From Desulfobacterales bacterium (lineage in GTDB: Bacteria > Desulfobacterota > Desulfobacteria > Desulfobacterales > UBA5852), in NCBI GenBank assembly GCA_963674755.2, contig CAXXVS010000002.1, forward strand, positions 2,304,001 to 2,368,000: a DNA stretch of 64,000 nucleotides, given 5' to 3'. The notes beneath the pieces were generated by a model that was not told where the DNA came from, did not search any database, and saw nothing but the letters and a program-made list of their open reading frames with translations. Position 1 is the stretch's first letter. Each line of letters starts with the position of its first letter. Shown here piece by piece: positions 15,165 through 32,228 of this stretch. The translations under genes were made by a program, and so were the position numbers.

Positions 15165-15268
15165 GTCGCGGATAGGGATGCCGGTTAACCCTTACAGAAA
15201 GCCGTTACCGACTTTCTCCCGGCAGGGACTTACACCCTGCAAGATGCGCCGAGCTTTGCTCGGCGCGA
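15165..15268 (-). mobile_element. Mini group II intron derivative (5' end fused to domain VI 3' end)
   Basis: First ~85 nt nearly identical to 18064-18146, then GGTTAACCGGCATCCCTATCCGCGAC resembling the DVI/3' end; removal restores GTTATGC. Confidence 0.75.
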
Positions 15269-15339
15269 TAACGCCAGTTTAACCGGCGTTTATCGGAGCG
15301 TAGCGGAGATAAACGTCCGTATTTAAACTTTTGTTACGC
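15266..15339 (-). other. attC site 21
   Basis: R'' GCGTAAC ... R' GTTATCG, internal inverted repeat. Confidence 0.85.
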
Positions 15340-16143
15340 TTAGGTGATTGATTTTGAATTGTTTCCAAATTTAATCAGCGGTCTCGGAAGAAATATTATT
15401 GCGATAAATGCAGCAACTCCCCAGAAAAGAAAATTGTACTGTTTCCGGTAGTTGACTGCAAACGCAAGGAAATTGGCCGACTCGTGTAGTAAGATTGCCG
15501 GTAATACACTTCCTTGGGCTTTGTATATAAATAGTGCCATGACAATCGTCCAACAAGTAAGCAAATATATATAAAGAATAAGGGAGTCACCATATTGAGA
15601 CGATCCAGGTGCAAAAAACAGAGGCAGATGCCAGAGGGCCCAGAGAGTGCCTACAACAAGACTGCCCCCAAGTGATCCCAGCCTATTTTGAAGTTCTGGC
15701 AGTGCAAATCCTCTCCAGCCGATCTCTTCACCAAGCCCGTTATAAACCAAGAAAAAAATCATGAAACCCAAGGGCATAGATGGCGAAAACCAATTGTTAG
15801 GTAATTCAGCTTCTGAAATCAAGACTGCTGTCAATGTACTTGCAGCCGCAATCACCAGTGGAGTCAATATTGCTGCAATGTACCATATTATATTGAAACG
15901 CCAATTTAATGAACGCTTTATTAGATGATGAAGCCCATATTTCCCATTTGTTATCAACAATGAGGTAGTAGCCGCAATTAAGGCTGCTGGAACTCCGATA
16001 AGGACAAGTAATCCACCCAATTGTCTAGGATCGTAAGTGAAAGGTATTTCAAACAGTTTTCCAATACCAAACAAAGCCCATAGTATCGAATACGAAATCA
16101 CGACATACAGAATGAGATGAGATAGCTGAGTCTGTTTTGCCAT
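15340..16143 (-). CDS. Cassette: CPBP/CAAX intramembrane glutamic endopeptidase
   Basis: GEEIGWRG, WALWHLP, LLHES.N. Confidence 0.92.
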   Translation of the reverse strand: MAKQTQLSHLILYVVISYSILWALFGIGKLFEIPFTYDPRQLGGLLVLIGVPAALIAATTSLLITNGKYGLHHLIKRSLNWRFNIIWYIAAILTPLVIAAASTLTAVLISEAELPNNWFSPSMPLGFMIFFLVYNGLGEEIGWRGFALPELQNRLGSLGGSLVVGTLWALWHLPLFFAPGSSQYGDSLILYIYLLTCWTIVMALFIYKAQGSVLPAILLHESANFLAFAVNYRKQYNFLFWGVAAFIAIIFLPRPLIKFGNNSKSIT

Positions 16144-16189
16144 ATTTATGTACCTAGATATTTTCTTAATCTAGTAAAACCACAATTAA

Positions 16190-16319
16190 GCATAATGCAT
16201 TTTTCAGAGGCCGGGCGGCGATTGTCGAAAATGAACCGCTGAAAGACATTGTTTATATTTGTTTTAACCTTAAAAAAACCGCGCCGTAAGCCCGGTCCCA
16301 CTGCAAAAAATTGTTATCT
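16190..16319 (-). other. attC site 20 (degenerate R' ATTATGC)
   Basis: R'' AGATAAC, inverted-repeat arms present, R' has A instead of G. Confidence 0.7.
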
Positions 16320-16697
16320 TCTTTCCTCATAATCCCAGTAAGATTCATAAAATGTATCATGTAACATCAATTCATCTGTTTCATCAGAGGAAAGACTTTC
16401 ACCATCCCAATCCTCAATTTCAATAATGTTTGGTTCAGTTACGCCATCTATGAGAGAGCATAGATGAAAACAGGGATACGCACATGCATCTTTAATAATT
16501 TTCTTTAGCGCAGCTTTTGCTGTATCTGATAATTCCAGTTTTGAAAGTGCTGAAATCTCATCCTGACTGAGTTCTATTCCCGGAGGGTAATCAGGCGAAG
16601 GTTTTCCATTTATTCCTAAGGCATTAATTGCAACTTCTGCAGACTCTTCAATTGCAGCATGTATTTCGGCAAAAAGTGCCTTCTTACTTTCATTCAT
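16314..16697 (-). CDS. Cassette: acidic hypothetical protein
   Basis: GGAG RBS; ORF fills the cassette. Confidence 0.8.
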   Translation of the reverse strand: MNESKKALFAEIHAAIEESAEVAINALGINGKPSPDYPPGIELSQDEISALSKLELSDTAKAALKKIIKDACAYPCFHLCSLIDGVTEPNIIEIEDWDGESLSSDETDELMLHDTFYESYWDYEERR

Positions 16698-16709
16698 ATT
16701 TTCTCCAAA

Positions 16710-16777
16710 AAATAACGCCCTGGCTTAAAGGTGAGGGCCGCGAAGTGGCCCTAATCCGATACAGCCTGATGTTATAT
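16710..16777 (-). other. attC site 19
   Basis: R'' ATATAAC ... R' GTTATTT. Confidence 0.85.
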
Positions 16778-16791
16778 TATTCCGATTTATT

Positions 16792-17295
16792 TTATTTCGT
16801 TTTTAATTCTGGAACTCCTGCGTATTCCGCCCACAGATCCCTGCATAAAACCTGCACTTGACCTAGATGAACCGAAAATCGCCTGATAATTATCACCTCA
16901 TCAGGCATTATGAAAACCCAACTGCCATCCTTTCTTTCAATTTGACGAGTGAATACCGCGAATTTATTTTGATCTTTATATAGCGTTTCTACTTTATTCC
17001 TAAAATATCTTAGCAATTTATTAATATTATCATTTCCAATTATACCTATATCCTCCCCATAAAACACACCGCCCAAAAACATATAACTTACAATATTAGA
17101 TTCCACTTCACCAAACTTAGCAACTGAATCCCCTATTTTGTACCACTTCATATTTGATTCAACTTGTATGAATTCAAGACTTGCATTTTTAATTGTGGAA
17201 ATGTTTTGGCGGCATTTAAAGCGATTCAAATAGTTCGCTTGTGTAACTTGGGGAAGTAACAAGATTAGAAATATGGGAAGTATTTTTTTCATCAT
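16792..17295 (-). CDS. Cassette: secreted hypothetical protein
   Basis: Signal peptide MKKILPIFLILLLPQVTQA. Confidence 0.8.
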   Translation of the reverse strand: MMKKILPIFLILLLPQVTQANYLNRFKCRQNISTIKNASLEFIQVESNMKWYKIGDSVAKFGEVESNIVSYMFLGGVFYGEDIGIIGNDNINKLLRYFRNKVETLYKDQNKFAVFTRQIERKDGSWVFIMPDEVIIIRRFSVHLGQVQVLCRDLWAEYAGVPELKTK

Positions 17296-17301
17296 TTGAA
17301 T

Positions 17302-18146
17302 ATCTCGTGGTAGGAACGCCGGTCACCCGGCGCCCCCCACTCAGACCCGGACGTGCGGTTTTCTCCCGCCATCGGCGGGATTCTTCGGTTGGACTCGCTT
17401 CCGCGCGGATCTTCACAGTTGCCCGTTACAAGATCCAGTTGCTATTCCCCGCAGTGAGGTTGGCTCGTGTTATCCAGCCCTACATGTCCGGCACGAGTTT
17501 CCTTTGTGGGCTACGTCCTTCCGTCAGGTCCTTTCCCGTGCATGTGTCCATGACACATGCCTGTGGCTGGCTTTCCCAACCTCTGAGTACTATGCCTGAT
17601 AAGACACCCCAATGGCATATAGCCGCCTTGCGACGACCCACCTGGTTCAGGATCATGATTGCCAGGAGCGCAATGGGGCTTCCCGAGTTCTACAGCGCAT
17701 CTCTTCCTGCATGCCACGGCCTGATGACTCCGGCGGACCTCCACATCCTCGCCTGTAACGGATGCGTCTGTATTGCCTTCGGTGCACGTTAAAACCCTCG
17801 GCGTCCGCAATTGCTATTTCGAAGCTGTACCAGCTCTTCAGGGAGCGCGGTCTCCCCTACGGCCTACAGGATTCTCTGCCTACGCTTAGCCCATCTTGTT
17901 CGATACCTCTGCTCCATTGTTCGTTCAGTGGGGTGAGACCATCCGCGAATGCCACCGGTCTCCCGGGTCGCGGCTCGTTTCCAGCCAATACAGCGACTTC
18001 CAGCACTTACAATGATCAGAAAGCATCTCCGCCATGGACCCAAGGCTCGATACGGGTGGGGGGCTAACCCTTACAGAAAGCCGTTACCGACTCTCTCCCG
18101 GCAGGGACTTACACCCTGCAAGATGCGCCAAGCTTTGCTCGGCGCG
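17302..18146 (-). ncRNA. ORF-less group II intron inserted at the attC R' core
   Basis: 5' CGCGCCGAGC..GGGTGTAAGTCCC; RT start relic PTSLRGIA; DV 3' arm CCGCACGTCCGGGTCTG; DVI GGCGCCGGGTGACCGGCGTTCCTACCACGA; removal restores GTTATAT; boundaries +/-2 nt. Confidence 0.88.
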
Positions 18147-18206
18147 ATAACGGCGCTTTTCAGCGGGCGCGGCTTTTTGCGATCCGCTGCAAAAGCTTTG
18201 TTAGAA
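18145..18206 (-). other. attC site 18
   Basis: R'' TTCTAAC ... R' GTTAT followed by the intron. Confidence 0.88.
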
Positions 18207-18237
18207 TTTCTCAATATCTAAACGCCTTTGATTATGT

Positions 18238-19295
18238 TTAAGCATGGCTTTTAAATTTATCATTCCAATATTTCTCAACACTATCAATCAAAAAATTCTC
18301 TGTCGGAAGATTATAGCTACATATATTAGTTAGTTTGTCATTTTCTTTTTCGACCATAACATGGTCAGCCTCTGAATATTCTTCTTTGTGCTCTTTGTAT
18401 ACGGACAAAATCGATTTTCTAATATCGTCAAATATTGAATACTCAAATTCATCAGTAATAAGCTTATCAACATTCATGATTTCCGCAAGTATCATGTCTT
18501 TTTTGTCTTGGCTAAATGAATTCCAATAGGACGGTTTAACAAACCAATGGTCACTACTATGAATCATAACCGATTCAATAAAGCTTAAAATTGTAAGAGG
18601 AGTTTGGAAATAGAAATCGATAATATTTCGAAAAAAATTATTGTGTTCTTTACCTGCCGAACAAAAAACATATGTACAATTTTCTAATGGAATGATGTTT
18701 GTTATCATGAGCATTTTTTTATTGGTTATCTCATCGCCATATGCCAAAGAGGTATAGCCGCAAAGAGCTACTGGGAATTGGTAATCAATCCGAACTCCAT
18801 GGTTTATTGTTGTACTATTTCTATTTTGAGAATTGCCTAAATATTCATTAAGGATTCGTGATGAGTAATCTTTTAAATAAATTATACGCTTTTCAAAATC
18901 TTTTTTCATATATCGCAATTGAATCAGTATGACATCATTTGCTTTAATATTAAGGCAATCAATATCTTTTTTAATTCCTTGCCTTCTTAAGTTTGCTCTC
19001 AATATATTGAATGCTTGTTCTTTCATTATAGATTCATATGTTTCAATCATTACCTGCATTTTATCAACTTCAATATAAAGATGAACTATCTCTCTGCAAA
19101 TTGATCTGTATACCTGCAATGCAAGAAAAGATTCTTCATCCAACTTCAAATTTTCATATTGCTGAAAGATTTTTTCATGGGCTTCACAGTACCCCGGAAA
19201 GGTAGAGGCTTTGTTGACTCCTACCGCCTCCATTGACAATTTAAAGTTGCTTCCAAACACATCAAATACAGGTTGAAGGACATGCCCTTGATCAG
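18238..19295 (-). pseudogene. Cassette gene, C-terminal part (Cys/His zinc-binding hypothetical), disrupted by IS
   Basis: ASTFPGYCEAH motif; the listed MLH start comes from the IS end; N-terminal part lies at 21642-21813. Confidence 0.75.
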
Positions 19296-19307
19296 TGTGC
19301 AACATCG

Positions 19308-20357
19308 CTAATTATGACACAATTCGGATGAAAAATCGGGTAACACTTTACCTGCTTTGCGGATCGTGATCATCTCGTTTTTAAGCAGCCATTGGGTGGC
19401 CGCTTCCCGCCAGGCGGCCGGCACGATCCAATCCTTACCAGCCCCCTGGGATATAGTGATGGCCAGATCTCTGATCCAGCGATAGACGTCCTGGCGCTTG
19501 CGCTTGGGATAGCGAAGCCGCTGCTCTCCAAAATAGACATAGCAGGCATTTCGTCCTTCAAGGCTGCGCCGGGAGCGGTGATTCAAATCATGGGCTGCGG
19601 TTTCCGCCAGCACGGCAGCGCCGCGGCAACTGTCCGCTTTCCAGCCCCAGTCACGAAGATAGCGTTTAAACTCGCCCTGGGTATGCTCGATGGCCCCATT
19701 GTAGGGCGCCGTATAGGCCGGACTGTTGATGGGAACCACCAGAGCCTCGGACAGAATATCGTCAACGGCGGCATGATTGAGATTACCGCCATTGTCGCGT
19801 TTACAAAACAACGGCGCCCCGAACTGAGAAAACAAGTGATCCAAATGCCCGGCGACTTCCTCACCGCAGGCAAGCTGTGTGGCCGCCAGGGGACGGAACT
19901 TGTAGCGGGAACATAAGTCACTCAGATTATGCAAATACAACCGGCGACCATCGACAATCTCCGTACACTGGCAGTCATCCATGGCCCAGGCCAGATTCGG
20001 CCGCAGCCAGGAGACCTGACAGGTCTGCGCCGAACGCTTGCGGTTCGCCTCCCGGCGGACATCAGCAATCATCCGTTCCAACTCCCGCCGGGAGATAGCA
20101 TCACCAAAAGCGCCCTTAAGACGTCCAGTCCCACGGCTGCGCCGGTGTCCGTGCTCGATGTCCCGGATCTGCGCTTTGAGTTCACCGAGATCAAGCGGAC
20201 AGACCTTCTTCGGTCCGGATTTCTCCACCGGTGCCTGCCCCCGGTCCAGCCGCCGCTTCCAGCGCATCAACGTGGCGTAGCCTATCCCCAGTTCCCGGAC
20301 GATGATGCGGATCGACACGCCATAGCGCTTTTTCATCGCCTCGATCATGATGACCAC
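19308..20357 (-). CDS. DDE transposase/integrase core protein
   Basis: WAMD, KRDNG, PYNGAIE, N.R.RRSL. Confidence 0.85.
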   Translation of the reverse strand: MVIMIEAMKKRYGVSIRIIVRELGIGYATLMRWKRRLDRGQAPVEKSGPKKVCPLDLGELKAQIRDIEHGHRRSRGTGRLKGAFGDAISRRELERMIADVRREANRKRSAQTCQVSWLRPNLAWAMDDCQCTEIVDGRRLYLHNLSDLCSRYKFRPLAATQLACGEEVAGHLDHLFSQFGAPLFCKRDNGGNLNHAAVDDILSEALVVPINSPAYTAPYNGAIEHTQGEFKRYLRDWGWKADSCRGAAVLAETAAHDLNHRSRRSLEGRNACYVYFGEQRLRYPKRKRQDVYRWIRDLAITISQGAGKDWIVPAAWREAATQWLLKNEMITIRKAGKVLPDFSSELCHN

Positions 20358-20370
20358 CTCTCGGATGCGC

Positions 20371-20718
20371 TCATTTTTTTTTCGCCCGGTCCAGGCCGGG
20401 ATCCAGCTTCAGCTCCGTCAGCACGTCCTTTAAGGCCATCTTGTGGCGCATCAGGGCGCTCTCCCGCTGGGCCTCGGCCAGCTGCTTTTCCAAGGCCTCC
20501 CGATGGCGGTCCACAGGCTTTTGCGGGCGGCCGGCAGGCTGATCCTCCAGGCTGCCCAAAAGGGCGCTTAGGCCCCGTTCCTCCCACTTGTAGTAGGTTT
20601 TCCTGGAGACGCCCAACTGGCGGGCCGCCTGGCTGGCACTCAGAAGACCGCAACGCACCTTCATGATCGCCTCGGCCCGCTGACGGGCCCTCTTTTGCGA
20701 TGGAGGACGCGCTTTCAT
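20371..20718 (-). CDS. HTH protein of the IS element
   Basis: ASQAARQLGVSRKTYYKWE. Confidence 0.8.
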   Translation of the reverse strand: MKARPPSQKRARQRAEAIMKVRCGLLSASQAARQLGVSRKTYYKWEERGLSALLGSLEDQPAGRPQKPVDRHREALEKQLAEAQRESALMRHKMALKDVLTELKLDPGLDRAKKK

Positions 20719-20739
20719 TATCGCCTCCTGGTGAAGGAA

Positions 20740-21048
20740 CTAGGTGGCGCTGGCCTTCTGGATGCTGCGCAGGCGCTTCTCCAATTTCGCATTGGGGGCG
20801 GCCAGCTTCTTTTCGATCAGCCGTGTGAGCCGGTGATTGAGCGGCGGTAAGGGGGCTTTCGTCGTGGGATCCAGCGCTTTGAGCATGCCCTCGATGGCCA
20901 GGTTCTGCCACTGGCCGAGCAGCGCCGGGCTGATCTCCATCTCCTGGCAGACCTGGGCGCTCGTGCGACGCTCGCTCCAGATCGACAACACGGCCGTGAT
21001 TTTCTGTTGTGGATCGAATATCCTGCGGGGACGTTTGGCTGTCTTCAT
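20740..21048 (-). CDS. HTH/OrfA-like protein of the IS element
   Basis: RRIFDPQQKI.AVL..W, VCQEMEIS..L.QW. Confidence 0.72.
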   Translation of the reverse strand: MKTAKRPRRIFDPQQKITAVLSIWSERRTSAQVCQEMEISPALLGQWQNLAIEGMLKALDPTTKAPLPPLNHRLTRLIEKKLAAPNAKLEKRLRSIQKASAT

Positions 21049-21448
21049 CGTCTATACCCTTTCTCGCATCGTAGACAAGTTCTTTTTGGGGGCGCTGCTG
21101 CTCACCATCCACCAGCATGCGCACTTTGCCCTTTTCCGCCCGGATCACCACGGATTGATCTCCCATGCGGCCCACCATGTAAAACGGGTCCACCGGCCGG
21201 CCCCGCAGGGCCAGCTCGAGGGCGTTTTCCTCCACCCCCTGCGCCAGGGTGCGTTTTAGATCGTGGGCGATTTCAAAGAACCGATCGGCCGGGCAAAGCC
21301 CGCCGATGCCCTGATGCGGTCGTTTGTAATTGTAATACTTCACCCAGTACGCGCAGCGCTCCACGGCCTCGTCAAAGCTGGCAAACTGCGCGCGCATACG
21401 CGGCTTGGCCTTCCCCCCTCTATCCTTGGTCTTACCTCTCTTAACCAT
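21045..21448 (-). pseudogene. Internally deleted IS481-type transposase
   Basis: Short N-terminus fused to YYNYKRPHQGIGG..PADRF; catalytic core missing. Confidence 0.65.
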
Positions 21449-21542
21449 GGGACACACTCCTTTCATTTCAATTGATTCCTACACTCAGGAGTGTTACCCA
21501 ATTTCCCTATATCGGTTGTGTCATCATCTGGTGACTAGGACA

Positions 21543-21641
21543 ACCATGAAAAGACAAGCCTATGGCTACCGTGATCAGGAGTTCTTTAAACTTAAAATCA
21601 TGACCATTCACTTGGCCAGGTACGCATTAATCGGATGAACC
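21543..21641 (+). mobile_element. ISL3 right-end remnant
   Basis: KRQAYGYRDQEFFKLKI C-terminus and GAACC terminal end. Confidence 0.8.
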
Positions 21642-21813
21642 TGCAATTTGGATATATGCATGTTCTCTGTTTCCAATATTTTTTACTATATTTTTGGCTT
21701 ATTGATTTGAAAAGAGGGCTATAAGCTTTAAAGCTTTGTATTTCAAGTGATCGATTATCTATGAGCTCAATTAGATTTTCTAATTCAGCCTCAATGATAT
21801 TCTTGCCTTCCAT
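21642..21813 (-). pseudogene. Cassette gene, N-terminal part
   Basis: MEGKNII...TCIYPNC cut by the ISL3 end; cassette core GTTAGAA matches R'' at 18200-18206. Confidence 0.7.
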
Positions 21814-21897
21814 ATCAGTAGTACCTATTTGCTGATTCCCCAAAACTTATCATAGACGGAGATGTTTTTTCTGAGTTCACCCGAAACTTGAAGCGAT

Positions 21898-21965
21898 TTC
21901 TAACGGTGATGCTTACCGGCTGGACGGCATTTTATCGCCCAGTCGGGTAGAGCATTTTGTTAGAA
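21898..21965 (-). other. attC site 17
   Basis: R'' TTCTAAC ... R' GTTAGAA. Confidence 0.85.
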
Positions 21966-22431
21966 AATTTATTATCTTTTGCGGCAACCAATTAATGTTT
22001 TCCTGAGGTAACCAATTGATGTCTTCTAAACCCTGTAGCGCAAGTTTCGCTTCCTTTAGGGACTCCATATACATTAGTTTATCACGAGTGTCAGGATCTA
22101 CCTCCAACATATTACTATTATTTATAACTTTAAGAATTTTGTCTGAAACTTTTGGAGAAAAATAAACTGTTCTCTCAACCCAAGCCGAAATCACCTCTTC
22201 ACACACCTGTTTGAAATTTTCTTTTCTTGATACTGCATCTGCCAACTTAAAAAGTAGAACATGCATGACCTTGTAGGCTTCTATTCGTTCTTTAAAAATA
22301 AGATCCAAACGCTCTTGATATTTTTTCCATCTTACACTTTTAAGTTGGAATACTTGTATTATAACCTGACCAATTAAGGTTATTGAGCTTCCGATTATTA
22401 CTCCAAGTAGGACATCGTTCATATCAATCAC
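21913..22431 (-). CDS. Cassette: hypothetical protein with N-terminal TM
   Basis: ORF fills the cassette and reads into attC. Confidence 0.78.
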   Translation of the reverse strand: MIDMNDVLLGVIIGSSITLIGQVIIQVFQLKSVRWKKYQERLDLIFKERIEAYKVMHVLLFKLADAVSRKENFKQVCEEVISAWVERTVYFSPKVSDKILKVINNSNMLEVDPDTRDKLMYMESLKEAKLALQGLEDINWLPQENINWLPQKIINFLTKCSTRLGDKMPSSR

Positions 22432-22433
22432 CT

Positions 22434-22491
22434 TTCTAACGGCGGGGCTTTGTGGCGAGGGAACCGAGTCCGCAACAGCCCAAGGTTAGCC
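22434..22491 (-). other. attC site 16
   Basis: R'' GGCTAAC ... R' GTTAGAA. Confidence 0.85.
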
Positions 22492-22852
22492 TTTATTTGG
22501 TCGCTTTATAAAAAACTGCCGATAATGATAAATCCAAGAACTATAAAGTAAGACGATTATTATTGATCCAATATCAACCATCTTGAATCTAAGAGCTATA
22601 TCATTTTGATTATCCCAACCAGCACGGATTAAAATGTCATTATTTACCAACAGGATATTAAAAATAAAAGCGATAATAAAAAAAGCATTAAAATAGAGGA
22701 ATCCGTAGTATGACCATCGATGAATTTTAAAAATTCCGATCGCCAATACAATATTTATAAGAATTATTATAGATTGCAGGATATCATAATGCATGCCCTC
22801 GAATAGAAATCCAAATAGTATAAAACTACTATTGGCATTAAATAATTTAGGT

Positions 22853-24260
22853 CACTCTTGTCCAAAAACGGGATTATATGGAAGTAATCTAATGAGATCT
22901 TGAAAAAAAGCCCCCTTGTAAGGCATGGTTTAGCTGCGAAGAAAAACCTATAGCCAACAACAAGGAGGCAAATTGATGGTACGTCACGCAAGCCTGTTCA
23001 GTCAACTGGTTGGTCTGTTTAATCGAGGGCATTTTCATAACCTGGTCTTTCGGCATCAGGCGGAGCGGGTATGCAAAGGGTTTCACCAGCTGGGATCATT
23101 TCGTAGCCATGCTTTTTTGCCAACTTGCCCAAGCCAAGAGCCTTCGCGAAATTTGTGGCGGCTTATCCTGCTGCCTGGGCAAGCTGCGTCATCTGGGGGT
23201 GCAAAAATCCCCGAATAAATCCACGCTGTCCTATGCCAATGCCCATCGTCCCTGGCAATTGTACCGGGATCTCTTTTATCAGACCCTCAACGTCTGCAAA
23301 ATGGCCGGACCTGGCAAACACCGTTTCCGCTTTAAGAACAAGCTACTGTCGCTGGACAGCTCCACCATCTCATTGTGTCTGTCTTTGTTTCCCTGGGCTA
23401 AATTCCGTCGAACCAAAGGGGCCGTGAAACTCCACTTGCTGTTAGATCACGATGGCTATCTGCCCACCTTCGCCTACATCTCTAACGGAAAGAAGCACGA
23501 TGTGACCATCGCCCGCGGGGTACCGCTGGCTCCCCATTCGATTGTCGCCATGGACCGTGCCTACAATGACTATCGGCTCTTTGCCGAATGGACAGAAAAC
23601 CAGATTTACTTTGTCACCCGGCTCAAGGGCAATGCCGATTACAGGGTTGTCGAGGATCGCGGCGTACCTGCCAACCGTAATATCCTAAGCGATGAGCTCA
23701 TCGAGTTTAATGGCTATAAGGCACATAAACGCTGTCCCTATCCCCTGCGCAAAGTCGTTGTATGGGACAAGGAGCATGACCGGGAGCTCATCCTCTTAAC
23801 CAATCACCTGAAGTTTGGCGCTACGACCGTATCGGCCATTTACAAAGATCGCTGGCAGATCGAGCTCTTCTTCAAGGCGCTTAAACAAAATTTGAAAGTG
23901 AAAACCTTTGTCGGCACGACAGAAAATGCCCTCTTCATTCAGATTTGGACAGCACTGATTGCCATGCTTCTGATCAAGTATCTCAGTTTCAAGGCCAAAT
24001 TTGGCTGGTCGTTGTCGAACCTAGTGGCGTTTTTGCGTTGGAACCTGTTTACCTATAGGGATTTATGGGAATGGATCGACCACCCCTTCGATGTGCTGCC
24101 GATCATCCCCAAATCCGTCCAATATCTTCTTCCGTTCAAGGGACTTGGACAGCATCAATTGAAAACGGCAACCTGATTTTAACTTTAGGGCATTTATACG
24201 CCTAACTCCTTGATATCGTTACACCCGAAAGGGATTCTTAGTTTATTTTGGACAGCAGTG
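22853..24260 (+). mobile_element. IS4-family insertion sequence
   Basis: TIRs CACTCTTGTCCAAAA / TTTTGGACAGCAGTG; 9-bp target duplication AATTTAGGT. Confidence 0.93.
23010..24176 (+). CDS. IS4 transposase (probable frameshift near the 5' end; true start likely ~22976)
   Basis: LDSSTI, MDRAY, IYKDRWQIELFFKALK (YREK); N-terminus MVRHASLFSQL lies in another frame. Confidence 0.88.
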   Translation: MVCLIEGIFITWSFGIRRSGYAKGFTSWDHFVAMLFCQLAQAKSLREICGGLSCCLGKLRHLGVQKSPNKSTLSYANAHRPWQLYRDLFYQTLNVCKMAGPGKHRFRFKNKLLSLDSSTISLCLSLFPWAKFRRTKGAVKLHLLLDHDGYLPTFAYISNGKKHDVTIARGVPLAPHSIVAMDRAYNDYRLFAEWTENQIYFVTRLKGNADYRVVEDRGVPANRNILSDELIEFNGYKAHKRCPYPLRKVVVWDKEHDRELILLTNHLKFGATTVSAIYKDRWQIELFFKALKQNLKVKTFVGTTENALFIQIWTALIAMLLIKYLSFKAKFGWSLSNLVAFLRWNLFTYRDLWEWIDHPFDVLPIIPKSVQYLLPFKGLGQHQLKTAT

Positions 24261-24362
24261 AATTTAGGTATTCCAATAATAGCGGCTAAGAATGTAAAGA
24301 CGCTTAATATTGTAAGCCCTTTTGGTCTGATAATATTGTCCATAACATCCGTTATGTTTGGA

Positions 24363-24490
24363 GGCTAACGCTCTACATGACCGGACGGGAAAACGATCAC
24401 GTCCTATGCAAAGGATACGTTTAATAATGATTGCTTAAAAGCTAATAATGGCATCGTTTTCCCGGTCCGATGTCCATGCAGTTGTTATGT
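24363..24490 (-). other. attC site 15 (long)
   Basis: R'' ACATAAC ... R' GTTAGCC. Confidence 0.82.
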
Positions 24491-24736
24491 CTTATCTCGC
24501 TTATTGTTTCTTGATAGAAATCCATAACCAAAAAAACCTAAACCCAAAAAAAGCCCTACGAGGATCAAACTATAAAATTTATTATCTTTTCCAAATATAA
24601 TTAAAGCCAAGATAATTCCTACAATCCCGACGACTACAGCAAAGCCAGTTTGATTAGCTTCACGTTTATTTAGCTTTGCCCCTCTGAAGGGAACTATCTG
24701 GGCTTCATCCTTTTCGTTGTTTGAGCTTTTCTTCAT
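24485..24736 (-). CDS. Cassette: small 2-TM protein
   Basis: ORF fills the cassette. Confidence 0.75.
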   Translation of the reverse strand: MKKSSNNEKDEAQIVPFRGAKLNKREANQTGFAVVVGIVGIILALIIFGKDNKFYSLILVGLFLGLGFFGYGFLSRNNKRDKT

Positions 24737-24760
24737 AATTTATTCAATTTTATCTCAGAG

Positions 24761-24833
24761 ACATAACGTTCTTCTCACCTGGCCGGTGTGGAGCGGCAGC
24801 GTAACACCGGTCAGGTGAAGAAATTGGTTAAAA
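24761..24833 (-). other. attC site 14
   Basis: R'' TTTTAAC ... R' GTTATGT. Confidence 0.85.
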
Positions 24834-25160
24834 GCTATTTTTATTTTGTTTTCCAAAAGTCATCAACAGTATGCCAGCAACCAAAAGGTTTAATCCAATT
24901 AAATGAACAATAAGGGCAAACGACATAGTTGAATGAACCCAGTCCAGTAATCTGTGCTGAGTTTCAGATACAAAATTTTGCCAGGGAATTATTTTATTAT
25001 ACATTGAACCGATTGCTGCGAGGAATGCACCTCCACCAAAAAGCATCCCACTTTTTGTCCGAAATTTATAGTAATAGAATACTCCGGATATTGCTAAAGC
25101 CGGTAATGTAATGAAACTGTAAAAGGAACCTAATATTTTCAATAACAACTGATTATCCAT
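24828..25160 (-). CDS. Cassette: small membrane protein
   Basis: Three hydrophobic segments; stop codon in R''. Confidence 0.78.
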   Translation of the reverse strand: MDNQLLLKILGSFYSFITLPALAISGVFYYYKFRTKSGMLFGGGAFLAAIGSMYNKIIPWQNFVSETQHRLLDWVHSTMSFALIVHLIGLNLLVAGILLMTFGKQNKNSF

Positions 25161-25175
25161 AACTCTCTATTAGAC

Positions 25176-25238
25176 TTTTAACGTCCGAGCTGAGACGCGC
25201 GAGGTTTCGCGCGTCGGTTCTCAAGCGACAGGTTAGAT
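25176..25238 (-). other. attC site 13
   Basis: R'' ATCTAAC ... R' GTTAAAA. Confidence 0.85.
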
Positions 25239-25691
25239 CATTCTTCTTTTAATTAGTCCGGAATAGCTCTTCACTATAAAAATTATGCTGAAGACGAAAA
25301 CTAAAGGTGCGACAATATCCTTGTGAATTATTGGGACAGGAGATTGAATTAGCAGATCTTTATATATTATTTTAATCCAATCCAAGACACCGCCTTTATG
25401 TGAAAATGCAGCAAATAGTCGGCCTGCAACCATGTAAGTTGAAATGGCGATTGTAATATGGCGTCCGGCTTTTTTCCCTTTTAGCAAAAGGTATCCACCC
25501 AATACCCCGACGACAATCATCAGGTAAGCTTTCGCAATGCTGAGATGGACAGCGTTTTGAACCGATGGGTCCGTGGGTATTGGATAATTCGTAAAAGGCG
25601 GCACATATTTGAGATACATCAACCAAACACAAATTGATAATATGCCTATTGTATATTCGATCCGGCTATTGTTCATATCATAAGGTTTCAT
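25233..25691 (-). CDS. Cassette: membrane protein
   Basis: Four hydrophobic segments; cassette core GTTAGAT at 25702-25708. Confidence 0.78.
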   Translation of the reverse strand: MKPYDMNNSRIEYTIGILSICVWLMYLKYVPPFTNYPIPTDPSVQNAVHLSIAKAYLMIVVGVLGGYLLLKGKKAGRHITIAISTYMVAGRLFAAFSHKGGVLDWIKIIYKDLLIQSPVPIIHKDIVAPLVFVFSIIFIVKSYSGLIKRRMI

Positions 25692-25708
25692 TTGGTAGAC
25701 GATCTAAC

Positions 25709-26053
25709 GTTCGCTTCAGCCCGTCGAGTGTCATATTGGAAAGGGTCGGGCTGATTATCCCGCCCTGAGGCGCTCCTTTACGAGAAGGATATAAGATGCC
25801 GTTTTCAACATATCCTGCCGTGAGCCACTTGCTAAGAACAACTTTATCCATTACGATGTTTTCGAGCATCCACTCTGATGAAATGTTATCGAAACACCCG
25901 GCGATAGGCCCGTGCTCACTGACGGCGCGTAAAGTCCTTTGCCTACTCTCGCCATATTGCCCCACGGGCGCAACACTCGATACGGGTGGGCGGCTAGCCC
26001 TTACCCGACAGGGACTTACACCCTGCAAGATGCACCAAGCTTCGCTTGGCGCG
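25709..26053 (-). mobile_element. Group II intron remnant: 5' ribozyme piece plus RT fragment
   Basis: CGCGCCAAGC..GGGTGTAAGTCCC 5' end; peptide CFDNIS..WL.AGY...GAPQGGIISPTLSNMTLDGL. Confidence 0.88.
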
Positions 26054-26122
26054 CTAACGGTTGAGCTGTGGGGCGGTAGATGCGTCAGCATTTATCCGTC
26101 CCACACAAGTGATTTGTTAGCC
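26052..26122 (-). other. attC site 12
   Basis: R'' GGCTAAC ... R' GTTAG followed by the intron. Confidence 0.85.
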
Positions 26123-26123
26123 A

Positions 26124-26573
26124 TTAACTTGGTCTCATGTATATAGCTAAAAAGGATAGCACTAATGCAACTTCAACGAACACAATTAAATATACGAGGT
26201 GCTTAAAGTATGGTTTTGATTCTTTTATATATGACATCCAACTTTTCTTTTCAGTTGAGTTGGATTTATTGATTTTTTCTAGTTTTCTTGTGCTTAGTTT
26301 TTTTTCCATTATGAATCGAAATGATGATATCCCGAAAAAAATCACTAAAATAAGCGATAACTTGTTTGCAAAATTAACAAAATTGATTGTGACAATTGCT
26401 CCTTCTCCTACAAGTACTGTTGAATGGCCTCCTCTATTACGCAATTGAATTTCATTTATTTCTTCAAACTTCTTTGTCCAATAACCATGAAGCATGAATG
26501 AATATATGGTAATAAGAATTAACAAAAATAGAATTGTATACATCGATTTTGATGATTTAAATTTGAATAGCAT
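26124..26573 (-). CDS. Cassette: 3-TM hypothetical protein
   Basis: ORF fills the cassette. Confidence 0.75.
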   Translation of the reverse strand: MLFKFKSSKSMYTILFLLILITIYSFMLHGYWTKKFEEINEIQLRNRGGHSTVLVGEGAIVTINFVNFANKLSLILVIFFGISSFRFIMEKKLSTRKLEKINKSNSTEKKSWMSYIKESKPYFKHLVYLIVFVEVALVLSFLAIYMRPS

Positions 26574-26588
26574 TATTTAAATGTAGGT

Positions 26589-26658
26589 GGCTAACGACCA
26601 AGCTGAGACGCGCAAAACGCGCAAGCGTTTTCGCGTCGATTCCAGCGCCAGGTTAGCC
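26589..26658 (-). other. attC site 11
   Basis: R'' GGCTAAC ... R' GTTAGCC. Confidence 0.87.
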
Positions 26659-27108
26659 TTGTTTTAGGTGTTTTGAAATATAGCGGACAATAAAATGCGC
26701 ATTTCCCGCCTCATTTTGAGCGAATTTTATATCCCCCTTATCCATGAATGCTTTTTCATGAATCAGTTCATTTCTTGTTCTTTGAAATTTTTCTGCTGTA
26801 TCCAAAATACTTGGATCTAAAATGCCCATCATTCTTAATTTTTCTTTATATGGCTTTTTATTGTGTTTATTAAACTGATTTTTACTATGATTCGTTACCA
26901 TGAATTGGTGAAATATTGCCTCAATCCACATAACAGCAAATACAACTACAATCATTGATTTCTTAAACGATAATTGGGAGGGATCGTATTTTATAATATA
27001 ACCACTACCATCTGCTTTAGGCGTTCTATTATTCTCTATATCCCTCACCATATCAGAATAATTGTCGTAAACAATTTGTTGGTAGATGTTTACGTTTGAG
27101 TAGGTCAT
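26653..27108 (-). CDS. Cassette: putative HEPN-domain protein
   Basis: Helical protein with upstream IEA and RNELIH (R-X4-H). Confidence 0.65.
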   Translation of the reverse strand: MTYSNVNIYQQIVYDNYSDMVRDIENNRTPKADGSGYIIKYDPSQLSFKKSMIVVVFAVMWIEAIFHQFMVTNHSKNQFNKHNKKPYKEKLRMMGILDPSILDTAEKFQRTRNELIHEKAFMDKGDIKFAQNEAGNAHFIVRYISKHLKQG

Positions 27109-27124
27109 TGATTATTACGCAAAA

Positions 27125-27185
27125 GGCTAACGATTTTGATGTGGGGCGCGCGCCTTTGCGCGTCCCAACCAGCAAGTTGTTAGAA
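27125..27185 (-). other. attC site 10
   Basis: R'' TTCTAAC ... R' GTTAGCC; similar to 29073-29135. Confidence 0.87.
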
Positions 27186-27200
27186 ATAGAACTCTTTTGG

Positions 27201-27758
27201 CTAACTCTTTATATTAACGCCGTGATCCTTCAACTTCATTTCTAATTTACGAATATCATTTTTGATTTGATTATTTTGGTCATTTAACTCTGATAACCTA
27301 CTTTTAAACTCATTATTCGTCTTAATTGTTTCATCATTAATCAAGTCGAGTTTTTTTGTTATTAACTGGTAATGCTCTAAGTATTTTTCCGAAATAGCTG
27401 CGGCTATTATTATCTTTTCGCGGTTGGACTGTTTCATTTCTGCTTTTAGAATTTCATGGTGCTTCTTAACGATTTCTTCTTGGATTGGTAATATTTGCTC
27501 TTTAAACCATGTATTCTGTTTCATTGCTGGTGTTATCAATTCATTTCTACATTCAGGAAAGGTTGCCTTTTTCTCTTCAGTAATTATGTCACTAATCCTT
27601 TTGTATGGGCGTTTTTGAATGGCCTCATCAATCTGGTCAAACAATTGATTAATATTTATAAAAAATTTTGATATCAGTTCATCATCGTACTTTTCTGAAT
27701 GGCAGGACAAACCCGTGAACAACAAGGTAGCAATAATTATAAATAAAGTTCTTTTCAT
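27201..27758 (-). CDS. Cassette: lipoprotein with coiled coil
   Basis: Lipobox-like GLSC after a signal peptide. Confidence 0.78.
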   Translation of the reverse strand: MKRTLFIIIATLLFTGLSCHSEKYDDELISKFFININQLFDQIDEAIQKRPYKRISDIITEEKKATFPECRNELITPAMKQNTWFKEQILPIQEEIVKKHHEILKAEMKQSNREKIIIAAAISEKYLEHYQLITKKLDLINDETIKTNNEFKSRLSELNDQNNQIKNDIRKLEMKLKDHGVNIKS

Positions 27759-27760
27759 AT

Positions 27761-27831
27761 TTCTAACGTTGAGTTGAGACGCGGGAAACGCGTCAGCGTT
27801 TACCCGTCGAGACTCAAACGATTTGTTAGAT
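27761..27831 (-). other. attC site 9
   Basis: R'' ATCTAAC ... R' GTTAGAA. Confidence 0.87.
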
Positions 27832-27839
27832 GTGGTTCC

Positions 27840-28106
27840 TTATTTTTTTAAATAATCTGCAAGAAAAGCCAACACCATTAACGAAATAACAATATACCAT
27901 CCAATTTTCTCTCGCTTGGAAAGTGGTCGTTCAAAAATTTTCGCAAACGATTCATGAAAAGGTTTACTGAGCGGCCCATAAATTAAATTCCGTGCCATTT
28001 TTGTCTTGGTTCCGTTCCCATCTTCAGATTTCAATAATAAGAATCCAATAAAGAGAATTATTATTGAGACGATGGGTAGGATTTTGAATAATGACTCGGT
28101 TTCCAT
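27840..28106 (-). CDS. Cassette: small 2-TM protein
   Basis: ORF fills the cassette. Confidence 0.75.
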   Translation of the reverse strand: METESLFKILPIVSIIILFIGFLLLKSEDGNGTKTKMARNLIYGPLSKPFHESFAKIFERPLSKREKIGWYIVISLMVLAFLADYLKK

Positions 28107-28119
28107 TTATTTGTTCAAC

Positions 28120-28178
28120 ATCTAACGCCAAAAATCAGCGGCGCAGCTTTTTGCGTTCGCTGGATTTTTTTGTTAGCT
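28120..28178 (-). other. attC site 8
   Basis: R'' AGCTAAC ... R' GTTAGAT. Confidence 0.87.
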
Positions 28179-29013
28179 GTAATTTTTCGTTGAATTTAAG
28201 ATGTACCATTTTTATGGCATTAAAAAATTTAATGACTTTAATAGAAGAGATATCTTGTTTAGCCCAATGTTCATCAATTTTCACCTTGGAGTAAAATGGA
28301 TATTCGTTAATAATTTCTATGTGTTGGTTCCATTTAGCAACGGACTCTGCTGAATTAATAGCCCAACGCATCCTTGCTTCTATATCACTTTTGCATTTAT
28401 TCTGTCTTTCACCAAGCCGATTAAGCCATAGCATAATTTTCGAGTAGATTTCGAACACCATTTCACTATTAGGAAATTCCTTTAATAAATCATTAAGCAA
28501 TCCTTTTACTTCTTTCTCGTTAAAATATGCTAATAACCCTGCGGCAATAATGAGAATTTTTGCCCCCCTTATTTCGATATCCTTGAACCAACTTCTATCA
28601 AAAACAGATTTAGCAATATATTTATTTCTTTCACCCTGAGGAATTAACTGATTCCTTAAAAAAATGGTGTCCTCTAAATCAAGATCGTACCAAAATATTC
28701 TTCCATTATCAATTCGATGGAACGTTGTATCTAATCCTGCCCCAATATTAATGATTGTTGCATCTGGCCAGGCACTGATTACATCTAAAATTTCTTTATC
28801 AAAATTGAAAGCACGAATTGCGCTGTTTATTTGTAAATGAGCCGGAATATTTTGTAAAAAAGTAGAGTCGAATTCAAGTTTAGATATTATTTCATGTGCA
28901 TATTTGTCCCTAATGATGGCTGAATCATTCTCATATTCTTTAGCCCGACCCCATAAAGGAATAAGCAGCGTTTTTTGCACTCCATTTAGGGTGGTTTTTA
29001 ATTTGTTTTCCAC
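28135..29013 (-). CDS. Cassette: class I SAM methyltransferase (LCM/TcmP-like)
   Basis: TLLIPLWGRA, INIGAGLDT, WYDLDL, AGLL.YF. Confidence 0.88.
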   Translation of the reverse strand: MENKLKTTLNGVQKTLLIPLWGRAKEYENDSAIIRDKYAHEIISKLEFDSTFLQNIPAHLQINSAIRAFNFDKEILDVISAWPDATIINIGAGLDTTFHRIDNGRIFWYDLDLEDTIFLRNQLIPQGERNKYIAKSVFDRSWFKDIEIRGAKILIIAAGLLAYFNEKEVKGLLNDLLKEFPNSEMVFEIYSKIMLWLNRLGERQNKCKSDIEARMRWAINSAESVAKWNQHIEIINEYPFYSKVKIDEHWAKQDISSIKVIKFFNAIKMVHLKFNEKLQLTKKSSERKKLRR

Positions 29014-29072
29014 TAATCCATTTATCCTTTTAGATATTGATGGTTAATTTACGGAATAATTAACTAATTGAC

Positions 29073-29135
29073 AGCTAACGTTGTTGATGTGGGGTGCGCG
29101 TTAGTTTGCGCGTCCCAACCAGCAGCTGGTTAGAC
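29073..29135 (-). other. attC site 7
   Basis: R'' GTCTAAC ... R' GTTAGCT. Confidence 0.87.
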
Positions 29136-29158
29136 AAGCAGATATTTCATGCTGAGCG

Positions 29159-29833
29159 CTAATTTAGTGCACCCTTATTTGATAATATCTGTACCGTATT
29201 TTCGAATTCTTTATTTTCAAAAAACCCAAACGAATCTAAGGCTAATTTGTCATTTTGATTCAATTTAGCGCCATTCTTTAACAGATGCATCATTACAGTA
29301 GGGTGATCATAAATAATCGATCTATAGAGTGCGCTGTATTTTCCACTACCAGTATAATTAACATCAGCCCCATTTCGGACTAATAGGTCAACAATTTCGA
29401 TATTATCGAATTGAGCCGCGTTTGTTAGCAAAGTTCCACCATTTTCATCATCCCATGCGAAGTTAGGATCGACTCCTGCCTTTATCAATTCGTCTGCAAT
29501 TACTGGATAATTTCTTGTTATAGATAAGTAAAATGCCAAATTAGGAAACTCAATACTACCTTCCGGTTTTGATCCGCTTTTCAATAAAAACTTTACCATA
29601 TCGATATTGCCGGATGATGTAGCAATTGCGATCGGAGTATATTTAAGACTCTGGATTTCGATTGTACAATTTACATCAGCTCCTTTTTGAATTAACTGTC
29701 CAACCAATTTCGTATCACCAGATATCGTTGCCTCTAATAGTTTTTCATCCAAATCTTGGTTTGAATAACAAATGCAGTTAAATATTAAAATTGTAGCAGG
29801 GATTACGAATAAGAACGATTTCAGAGCATTCAT
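29159..29833 (-). CDS. Cassette: secreted ankyrin-repeat protein
   Basis: Repeated TP/TL..A...G...V..L...GADVN. Confidence 0.9.
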   Translation of the reverse strand: MNALKSFLFVIPATILIFNCICYSNQDLDEKLLEATISGDTKLVGQLIQKGADVNCTIEIQSLKYTPIAIATSSGNIDMVKFLLKSGSKPEGSIEFPNLAFYLSITRNYPVIADELIKAGVDPNFAWDDENGGTLLTNAAQFDNIEIVDLLVRNGADVNYTGSGKYSALYRSIIYDHPTVMMHLLKNGAKLNQNDKLALDSFGFFENKEFENTVQILSNKGALN

Positions 29834-29863
29834 AAATGTGCGCTTCTATTTATGTTTTGAATT

Positions 29864-29923
29864 GTCTAACGCTGCTAATCAGCCGCGCGGCTTTTTGCGT
29901 CGGCTGAATTAGCCTTGTTATGC
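29864..29923 (-). other. attC site 6
   Basis: R'' GCATAAC ... R' GTTAGAC; closely similar to 61155-61214. Confidence 0.88.
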
Positions 29924-30042
29924 CTTTTCAGCGATGTAGCCACCAAAAAGGTATGACTGGTAAAATTTATAATTCTTTGTGAAACCGCTTGATTTCAACA
30001 GCTCAATAATTCTTTCTTCGGGTATGAATTGTAAATCCGTAT
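29918..30042 (-). pseudogene. 3' remnant of a cassette gene (methyltransferase-like C-terminus)
   Basis: TDLQFIPEERIIELLKSSGFTKNYKFYQSYLFGGYIAEKA*, no start codon. Confidence 0.6.
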
Positions 30043-30043
30043 G

Positions 30044-30571
30044 TTAGCTTAGGATTTTATCTTTAACCTTCGACTGAAGCATCTCAAGGTCTTCAATAAA
30101 CTTTTTTTCGAGATCTTCCATGGCCTTACGGTTCTTATTGTAGGCATCCTTTCTAATTTTGAACAGATGTTTATTTTTATGAAGCAATGATCGTCGTTTT
30201 AAAAAATCTTCACGGGCTGTTCTATACTCTGCATTGATCTCAGATAATTTTTGCTCTTCATCACTATATTCTAATGGTGTCGTCCAGTCCCATGGATTTT
30301 CCCAGTTGATGCTATTAGGGTTATTGGATAGACGCCATTTGAAGGCTATCAAATCCATTTCTTGTTCAGCCTCTTTCATCGGTATCCAAAGCTCATAAAA
30401 TGATTTAACTTCAGGGCATGAATTTACAAGAATTTCTGATTCCCTCAACTCATGTAAATAAAACAATTTCTGTGCCTCAATAAAGAATTCTATTTTTTGA
30501 TCCTCAGCATGAGAATTTGAGGCTAATAAAATTGATATCAATAATGTTGCTATAGTCAGGATATTCTTCAT
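30044..30571 (-). CDS. Cassette: secreted hypothetical protein
   Basis: Signal peptide; ends in an isolated R'' AGCTAAC. Confidence 0.8.
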   Translation of the reverse strand: MKNILTIATLLISILLASNSHAEDQKIEFFIEAQKLFYLHELRESEILVNSCPEVKSFYELWIPMKEAEQEMDLIAFKWRLSNNPNSINWENPWDWTTPLEYSDEEQKLSEINAEYRTAREDFLKRRSLLHKNKHLFKIRKDAYNKNRKAMEDLEKKFIEDLEMLQSKVKDKILS

Positions 30572-30576
30572 AAGAG

Positions 30577-31284: not shown

Positions 31285-31286
31285 GG

Positions 31287-32196: not shown

Positions 32197-32228
32197 CAGC
32201 CCTATGTTAAGCGCTTCCTAAGAATTAC

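Follow-up and report, generated by a model that had tools for sequence, protein, structure and literature searches.

We analyzed a 64,000-nucleotide stretch of the genome of a Desulfobacterales bacterium (assembly GCA_963674755.2, contig CAXXVS010000002.1, positions 2,304,001 to 2,368,000; hereafter the window), which carries a chromosomal integron and, in its cassette array, three elements of a group II intron family that each begin at the end of an attC recombination site. Integron-invading introns are taught as one case, that of class C introns which sit on the bottom strand, antisense to the cassettes, and block transcription from the cassette promoter Pc. Positions without a prefix are those of the window, those prefixed C1, C2 or C3 lie elsewhere in the same genome, numbers beginning with L denote individual intron loci, and a slash within a motif marks a junction.

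The integron and its cassette array

The integron lies on the minus strand and comprises two parts:

35253..36566, minus strand: integron integrase gene intI (TIGR02249, 433.1 bits against a cut-off of 265; Pfam Phage_integrase and Phage_int_SAM_4)
15269..35003, minus strand: cassette array of small open reading frames (ORFs) separated by attCs, delineated from the ORF list, Pfam, the intergenic sequences and the attC covariance model R1

The integrase gene is transcribed in the cassette direction, which is the inverted-intI layout, and is followed downstream by about 20 kb of small minus-strand ORFs. The attC cores in the array read YTAAC(AA) for R'' and CGTTA plus G, T or A for R'. Model R1 was trained solely on nine intron-free attC bottom strands, all from the window. 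Within the array it returned 16 matches on the plus strand between 16710 and 33228, corresponding to the attC bottom strand, and none on the minus strand there; these 16 include the occupied attCs of two of the introns (copies 2 and 3 below), which had not been used for training. When 11 intron-free attCs were folded both ways, the plus (bottom) strand was the more stable in nine, and an RNAalifold consensus of nine plus-strand attCs contains 17 pairs, nine of which show compensatory changes, as well as a T that stays unpaired on the 3' arm. Because ORF direction, intI position, strand asymmetry and R1 agree, the attC top strand corresponds to the minus strand. Relative to the cassettes, the introns have the sense orientation, and they lie inside R', three nucleotides past the G/TT crossover point, a geometry that makes each of them the 5' end of the downstream cassette. 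The initial annotation had thus correctly placed all three elements on the cassette coding strand and in the leader of the next cassette.

The array is interrupted twice, at 18238-21466 (minus strand) by two rve-type integrase-core ORFs with a 355-amino-acid partner that has no family match, and at 23010-24176 (plus strand) by an IS4-like DDE_Tnp_1/DUF4372 transposase. The first ORF after intI (33642-35003, minus strand) encodes an AAA_15/AAA_21 ATPase that faintly matches retron-associated effector ATPases (PtuA, 39 bits, far under the cut-off), so that the array may open with a gene of defence type. Between this ORF and the intI stop codon, the segment 35004-35252 (minus strand) contains a direct repeat of CTGCAGCAGGATAATAA in two copies, with AAACGTTAT near the first by visual inspection, and may represent the attI region of the inverted-intI integron.

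Three intron copies inside attC R' cores

The three copies, their attCs and the parts of the best-preserved copy are as follows:

15269..15339, minus strand: attC of copy 1, the last of the array (GCGTAAC...CGTTA, 18-pair stem)
15183..15268, minus strand: copy 1, an 86-nt 5' stub with 97% identity to copy 2
18148..18206, minus strand: attC of copy 2 (R1 match at 18145-18206, 31.2 bits, E 8.8e-5, outside the training set)
17303..18147, minus strand: copy 2, a group II intron 845 nt long and without an ORF (Rfam RF02005 at 58.2 bits, cut-off 49)
17791-17787, minus strand: exon-binding site 1 (EBS1) of copy 2, UAACG, in the loop of the Rfam-matched domain 1 hairpin
17437-17407, minus strand: 31-nt hairpin of copy 2 in place of the domain 4 ORF
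17383-17344, minus strand: domain 5 of copy 2, with a 7-nt insertion relative to its relatives (alignment of domains 5 and 6, D5-D6)
17342-17303, minus strand: domain 6 of copy 2, with the bulged branch A at 17311 (D5-D6 alignment)
26055..26122, minus strand: attC of copy 3, its R' cut after GTTA (R1 match at 26052-26122, 34.7 bits, E 1.4e-5, outside the training set)
25721..26054, minus strand: copy 3, a fused remnant (blastn; TIGR04416)

A 25-nt core of the common 5' end is present without mismatch at 15223-15247, 18102-18126 and 26009-26033 on the minus strand, and these three occurrences compare with an expected count of 0.00 from 100 shuffles. On the same strand, CGTTA precedes each element (TGGCGTTA before TCGCGCC, CGCCGTTA before TCGCGCC and AACCGTTA before GCGCGCC), and the sequences upstream are mutually unrelated hairpins bounded by YTAAC...CGTTA, each located downstream of a minus-strand ORF. 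The shared 5' end behind attC that had been noticed by the initial annotation is therefore real in all three cases, although its start must be moved by one base: because distant relatives begin with GTGCG directly after GTTA, the base formerly counted as part of the attC, a T in copies 1 and 2 and a G in copy 3, is intron nucleotide 1, located at 15268, 18147 and 26054. Similarly, it was accurate that the window copies lack the canonical GUGYG start, but their UCGCG and GCGCG are variants of that motif. The assignment to a group II intron family was borne out by the Rfam matches and by a D5-D6 structure with compensatory changes.

Beyond the 5' end, the three elements are not equivalent, as had been supposed, but comprise a stub, an ORF-less intron and a composite, and none of them contains an intact ORF. 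The weak similarity of copy 1 may extend to about 15165; its attC, a member of an AT-rich attC family, gave no match with R1. Copy 2 shares 91.6% identity with the ribozyme part of a full-length copy on C1, and is probably inactive, because its domain 5 holds the 7-nt insertion. In copy 3, nucleotides 1-88 constitute an E-type 5' end that starts with GCGCG and is 88% identical to the 5' end of locus L042 (blastn), while the body (25964-25902 and 25906-25721) consists of domain 1 and reverse transcriptase (RT) pieces of a chloroplast-like (IIB1-type) intron, matching C2:1974492-1975682 with 98% identity over 63 nt and 90% over 186 nt (blastn). The RT fragment scores 71 bits with TIGR04416, and copy 3 reaches only 27.1 bits with RF02005. 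Since an E-type 5' end adjoins pieces that match the chloroplast-like C2 intron, copy 3 is, judged by these matches, a fused remnant of two intron classes.

The C2 match belongs to a full-length chloroplast-like intron (L096, C2:1973501-1978000; RF02012 and RF00029) encoding a 535-amino-acid RT with RVT_N, RVT_1 and GIIM domains, which aligns to the T.el4h RT (6ME0) with 555 bits; the 5' flank of this intron (C2:1974.3-1977 kb) is not GTTA. We also considered a 3' truncation of copies 1 and 3 at an internal GTTA by IntI. This idea was dropped, as the similarity of copy 1 fades gradually past GGGTTA, and the end of copy 3 near CGTTAGAT is a single case that proves nothing.

A full-length copy and an empty site in the same genome

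The initial annotation had suggested searching the genome for a full-length, RT-bearing copy, and such a copy is present in another attC at C1:732363-734421 (L002). Its 461-amino-acid RT ORF matches RVT_1 with 106 bits and GIIM with 19.5 bits, the latter under the cut-off, has no endonuclease domain and ends shortly past the X domain; the intron itself scores 57 bits with RF02005 (cut-off 49) and 40.0 bits with RF00029 (cut-off 40). The 5' exon of this copy ends in ...GGCGCTA, i.e., in CGCTA and not CGTTA. An empty attC in the window, 22434-22491 (...CGCCGTTAGAA), is homologous to the site occupied on C1 (...GGCGCTA followed by the intron), and this empty paralogue fixes the insertion point. 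Around the full-length copy, R1 detected three more attCs at C1:723-730 kb in matching orientation.

In addition, a 51-nt stub follows CGTTA at C2:1652727, as does a stub in a second genome of the same family, and two 3' fragments of a related lineage are located on C3. Thus, the genome contains five 5' junctions (the three window copies, the full-length copy and the C2:1652727 stub), four of which lie at clear attCs. A survey of the same family found the intron 5' end in only two of 17 genomes, this one included, and yielded no useful table of flanks.

A lineage with a fixed register in other genomes

Using the C1 RT as query against 185,579 species genomes, we obtained 103 relatives and retained 80 loci, whose hosts include Desulfosarcina, Desulfobacterium, Ectothiorhodospira, Planctomycetota, Chloroflexota, Calditrichota and others; intact copies are among them, e.g., L010 and L011 in Desulfosarcina widdelii. 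Placement of the 5' ends with nhmmer gave 41 junctions, at which the intron is preceded by GTTA in 28, by GTT plus A, C or G in 34, and by CGTTA in 25. The introns begin with TCGCG (25 junctions), GTGCG (13) or GCGCG (3), and the window copies represent the two variants of GUGYG. At the other end, the first base of the 3' exon is T (25) or G (23) in 48 of 67 cases and the commonest 3' exon is GGC, such that the joined exons read GTTA/GGC, GTTA/GCC or GTTA/TGT and resemble intact R' cores of the window.

Applied to the 80 loci, R1 produced 30 matches, distributed over 18 loci. Every one of the 30 lies on the strand opposite to that of the intron, and eight of these end exactly two nucleotides inside the intron, which is the register observed in the window. 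Upstream ORFs run mainly in the sense direction at 27 of the 34 junctions whose flank is 400 nt or longer (seven short flanks were excluded). In an RT tree of 22 rows, one of which has a long branch and is unreliable, the GTT target is found throughout, except in the subclade of L033 and L041 and at one N-masked flank. A search for IntI within 4 kb on either side of the related loci gave weak tyrosine-recombinase matches only. Together, these data extend the siting at the R' end and on the sense strand, as initially described for the window, to a lineage that, by its sequences, is spread over at least five phyla with the same register at many attCs.

Ribozyme structure and class

The D5-D6 alignment of 28 3' ends supports 27 predicted pairs, 16 of which show compensatory changes. 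In this alignment, domain 5 has a 2-nt bulge and a 5-nt loop, and the long domain 6 carries an unpaired UA 7-8 nt from the end, after which comes a basal helix of 5 bp. Across the 55 distinct 3' ends, the domain 5 loops are GAAAA, UAAUU, UAGUA and similar. The distance from the branch A to the 3' end is 7 nt, or 8 nt in the subgroup that begins with UCGCG (L002 and L010-L031). This subgroup has a 5' U for G, a 3' end ...GAGA that is one base longer than the ...GAC or ...GAU of its relatives, and a domain 5 in which AAC stands opposite G, compared with AGC opposite A in the relatives.

The class C triad in domain 5 is CGC, and the lineage has AGC or AAC at this position. Against RTs of solved structure, the C1 RT scored 135 bits with IIC, 124 bits with LtrA and 117 bits with T.el4h, and it shares at most 40% identity with plasmid-borne group II RTs. 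On these features, the lineage is IIB-like and probably of class E type, and most probably not IIC-attC. Its tentative placement in class E as opposed to class F (g3) follows the likeness to the published fragments H.ha.F1 and H.ha.F2 as judged by eye.

Predicted recognition of the R' core

A domain 1 hairpin of the intron carries a 9-nt terminal loop that holds UAACG, the complement of exon CGUUA. At 25 of 43 junctions the hairpin could be anchored; there, each of the exon positions -1 to -5 is complementary to its counterpart in UAACG or UAGCG in 23-25 of the 25 cases. The initial annotation had proposed that the introns recognize attC structure rather than sequence, given that the three attCs differ; yet all three keep CGTTA, complementary to the loop, and this proposal was not supported. 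Recognition of the R' core sequence is the best-supported part of our interpretation, while a role for the hairpin is one that we only infer. Because near-identical introns follow unrelated sequences at positions -7 to -12, pairing between EBS2 and intron-binding site 2 (IBS2) adds no specificity.

Five base pairs are probably not the whole of the signal. The genome contains 4,908 CGTTA sites and about 24 attCs detected by R1 (150 of 791 candidates scored); since CGTTA sites so far outnumber attCs, and four of the five junctions are nevertheless at attCs, something beyond the 5 bp probably guides insertion. At L085:2567-5823, an ORF-less and a full-length copy form a head-to-tail tandem at one attC, with the 3' end of the ORF-less copy directly on the 5' end of the full-length copy. 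This is the expected result of re-insertion at an intact 5' exon, and suggests that the 5' exon dominates recognition.

ORF-less derivatives

Copy 2 is 85-88% identical to ORF-less copies at L085, L030 and L021 in two other species-level genomes, which have the same domain 4 hairpin. In these relatives domain 5 is intact, and the register at attC is that of the full-length copies. The ORF-less copies are presumably non-autonomous derivatives mobilized in trans by the RT of full-length introns. Assembled contigs of two public metatranscriptome runs (word shares 0.07 and 0.06) cover ribozyme parts and not the ORF, and contain ORF-less joints; they may stem from other organisms or from DNA, and uncovered parts prove nothing in such assemblies. 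One run (X1) contains a single head-to-tail joint, from 3560 to 1502, which could derive from an intron circle or from the transcript of a tandem such as that at L085 and is a hint only.

Proposed homing to the attC top strand

We consider it likely that the window elements are decayed introns of an endonuclease-less, IIB-like group (class E type) that home to the attC top strand, between GTTA and the last three bases of R'. According to this model, the intron ribonucleoprotein would reverse-splice into single-stranded top-strand DNA by way of the 5-bp pairing between EBS1 and intron-binding site 1 (IBS1) in the conserved R' core. A further determinant is probable, and could be either the attC hairpin located immediately upstream, in the manner of IIC introns, or exposure of the DNA as a single strand. 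As the template of lagging-strand synthesis, the top strand would offer the substrate that endonuclease-less introns use. An intact sense copy would be transcribed along with the cassettes and be able to splice out, restoring GTTA/GGC. The arrangement differs from that of known IIC-attC introns, as had been noted from the outset, but the earlier description as a hybrid retroelement-integron system was too strong, and an intron lineage with a preference for attC targets describes it better. Its further idea, that the introns travel with IntI-mediated cassette moves and are transcribed from Pc, is conjectural.

With regard to replication, cumulative GC skew shows that the plus strand of the window is C-rich, which assigns the attC bottom strands to the leading-strand template; in all seven intron copies and fragments of the genome the sense strand is the G-rich one. 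In the available text of Loot et al. [quoted passage not shown]

Several observations weigh against this reading. All three window copies are, by sequence, defective or dead, with copy 3 retaining an RT fragment; this decay and the fusion of copy 3 with a second intron class had been overlooked in the initial annotation. EBS1 and IBS1 are both conserved, and their complementarity comes without covariation. For a sixth pair, between exon position -6 and EBS1 nucleotide 6, 11 of 16 unique combinations are paired and 559 of 5000 shuffles were as good, so this pair was dropped and 5 bp are claimed. Upstream ORFs are mainly antisense at seven of the 34 junctions, in one case (L085_3392) because the upstream flank is another intron; L017 seems to be located within a gene, hairpins are absent from some flanks, and the subclade of L033 and L041 uses other targets. 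Model R1 is narrow, given its one-genome training set; it confirmed eight of the 41 foreign junctions and missed the attC of copy 1. The class E label comes from comparison by eye. The catalytic competence of the UCGCG subgroup, the C1 copy included, is uncertain because AAC replaces the AGC triad and because of the unusual 5' U and 3' GA. GC skew is the sole basis on which placement on the lagging-strand template may be proposed as the reason for the choice of the top strand. Finally, no exon-exon or empty-site joints were listed in the assembled contigs of the public runs.

Alternative explanations

The alternative that survives best, and which we nonetheless judge unlikely, is homing by sequence only to (N)CGTTA/G via EBS1 and EBS3, in which case arrays would simply offer many exposed motifs and the hairpin would be irrelevant. 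The strong EBS1 complementarity is compatible with this view, as are copies that follow CGTTA without a detectable attC (e.g., L017 and L018) and the L085 tandem, which shows that the 3' side is unimportant. It does not readily account for the concentration of the genome's own junctions at attC-like hairpins (four of five) in the face of the thousands of available CGTTA sites, nor for the unrelated -7 to -12 flanks behind near-identical copies, which leave no EBS2-IBS2 specificity. Foreign junctions also favour hairpins by a crude measure, in which AAC...GTT was forced to pair and the outer-stem pairs were counted with a threshold of at least 14: this was reached at 22 of the 41 foreign and three of the five own junctions, compared with 42 of 600 (7%) random CGTTA control sites. 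The measure was rejected as too unspecific, and R1 was used instead.

It is very unlikely that the three copies arose by duplication, or by IntI-mediated shuffling, of a single cassette that carried an intron. Identity between copies 1 and 2 is indeed 97% over 86 nt, and an intron at the 5' edge of a cassette could in principle be moved by IntI. However, the three upstream attCs are unrelated in sequence, further copies are found on other contigs, and copy 3, which starts with GCGCG and lacks the early hairpin, is from another sub-lineage. The downstream sequences differ as well, being the ORF at 16792-17295 for copy 2, the ORF at 25233-25691 for copy 3 and the chromosomal backbone for copy 1, which argues for spread by insertion and not by cassette shuffling.

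We attach a similarly small probability to the idea that the ORF-less element is a ribozyme domesticated for a role in the host or the integron, such as a DNA-cutting or regulatory RNA. In its favor, ORF-less copies with one neat domain 4 hairpin persist in three genomes at 85-88% identity, and the ribozyme parts are covered by RNA-library contigs, in which ORF-less joints occur. Against this, copy 2 has the 7-nt insertion in domain 5, the RNA-library contigs possibly come from DNA or other organisms, and the ORF-less copies share the attC register of full-length copies, as trans-mobilized retrohoming predicts.

The last alternative, ordinary IIC-attC introns whose strand was miscalled such that the minus strand would be the bottom strand, is almost certainly wrong: attCs are near-palindromic, reading ...AAC...GTT... 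on either strand, and IIC-attC introns also sit beside GTT, but the array ORFs and intI are all on the intron strand, extra unpaired bases and G-T pairs are found on the plus strand, AACAA, which follows R'' at the opposite end of the site and stands where one would expect the IIC-attC target TTGT/T, is intact in each attC, the 5-nt domain 5 loop is a IIE/IIF hallmark according to Nagy et al. (2013), and the RT is no nearer to solved IIC RTs than to those of IIA or IIB introns and at most 40% identical to plasmid RTs.

Relation to known integron-associated introns

The closest published elements that we found are H.ha.F1 and H.ha.F2, described in the consulted sections of Sonbol and Siam (2021; PMC7923331) as class E (IIB) fragments in a cluster of attC sites lacking an integron integrase (CALIN) of Halorhodospira halochloris. 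Like the introns described here, they are endonuclease-less, lie in cassette orientation on the G-rich strand and have attC-like hairpins upstream. Compared by eye, their printed intron-encoded proteins (IEPs) run colinearly with the C1 RT and also share its C-terminal signature, and the printed DNA of H.ha.F1 has the domain 1 stretch around GTCATCAGGCCGTGGCATGCAGG in common with the lineage. Both fragments are 5'-truncated in that account, so that the attC junction is invisible and no target rule or EBS1 pairing is given, whereas here the 5' junctions are intact and GTTA/ is fixed.

IIC-attC introns (S.ma.I2 and others), as presented by Leon, Quiroga, Centron and Roy (2010; PMC3001079) and in PMC7923331, insert into the bottom strand at R'', at TTGT/T and antisense to the cassettes. 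They share with the present lineage the absence of an endonuclease, the position beside the attC-core GTT just after the hairpin and a short IBS1, but are class C introns, whereas this lineage is IIB-like, has a 5-nt domain 5 loop and occupies R' on the top strand in sense. Two further cases are described in the consulted part of PMC7923331. UHB.I2, a IIB1/CL1 intron directly after an attC and in cassette orientation, has no conserved flanking exon sequence reported there; it resembles the main lineage in being sense-oriented, non-IIC and just downstream of attC, but has a different ORF class, and the body of copy 3, with its domain 1 and RT pieces, belongs to a chloroplast-like intron of the same general type. 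A group IIC intron in a class 1 integron of Enterobacter cloacae (Rodriguez-Martinez, Nordmann and Poirel 2012, as cited there) has the top strand and the cassette orientation in common with the introns here, but is reported as class C and from a mobile class 1 integron.

The features of class E and F introns given in the available text of Nagy et al. (2013; PMC3753933), namely a domain 5 loop of 5 nt and an IEP without an endonuclease domain, recur in this lineage, as do the IIB-like form and the importance of EBS1-IBS1 pairing when PMC3552965 is also considered. Class E and F introns are further marked, in domain 1, by an alpha-prime that tips a DId3 stem-loop and by an additional DId3 bulge loop. 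The accessible parts of these papers deal with ordinary homing through EBS1 and EBS2, and in that of PMC3552965 (Toro and Martinez-Abarca 2013) neither "attC" nor "target" occurs. In the literature on group II introns in attCs, integrons or CALINs and on bacterial class E introns, we found for this class no fixed R' register and no EBS1 matching the core; in print, the sense-strand habit of homing to attC R' was found for class E-type introns only as fragments.

Other integron remnants and a riboswitch

About 24 kb beyond intI, two R1 matches on the minus strand, i.e., in reverse orientation (60319-60380, 25 bits; 61155-61214, 41.8 bits), bracket one plus-strand ORF at 60379-61203 and look like an isolated cassette outside the array. 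Elsewhere in the genome, fragments of intI genes that are 57-75% identical to the C-terminus of the window IntI are found at C1:181044-181496, C1:756591-756743 and C3:1409431-1409607, and R1 matches lie near such fragments at C1:185-187 kb and C3:1420 kb, which suggests decayed integrons or CALINs. At 4336-4440 (minus strand), a c-di-GMP-I (cyclic dimeric GMP) riboswitch aptamer (RF01051 at 49.7 bits, cut-off 35) is located upstream of the minus-strand ORF 1956-4280, which encodes a metallophosphoesterase/5'-nucleotidase.

Implications

For the window itself the meaning is modest, in that the copies are dead scars of earlier invasions, in which two intron classes entered the array. Beyond it, we tentatively raise the possibility, which may well prove too broad, of a class E-type lineage in at least five phyla that is specialized on the attC top strand, with an EBS1 that reads the R' core (CGTTA/GGC), possibly exploits top strands on the lagging-strand template, moves and is transcribed with the downstream cassette as its 5' end, could splice out harmlessly, and has ORF-less derivatives that reuse the same site; together with a chloroplast-like lineage of the same habit, it would form the sense-strand counterpart of IIC-attC introns. 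If this is true, such a counterpart could move with cassettes and seed rearrangements of arrays. Were a second class of introns to read the R' core itself, on the expressed strand, this would change the view of which strand, and which replication context, integrons expose to retroelements. The sense siting bears on the neutrality of these introns to cassette expression, since they could splice, and on whether they can ride along with cassettes. The lineage would also provide a programmable means, natural and short, by which RNA recognizes a structured site in single-stranded DNA, as well as compact ORF-less ribozymes.

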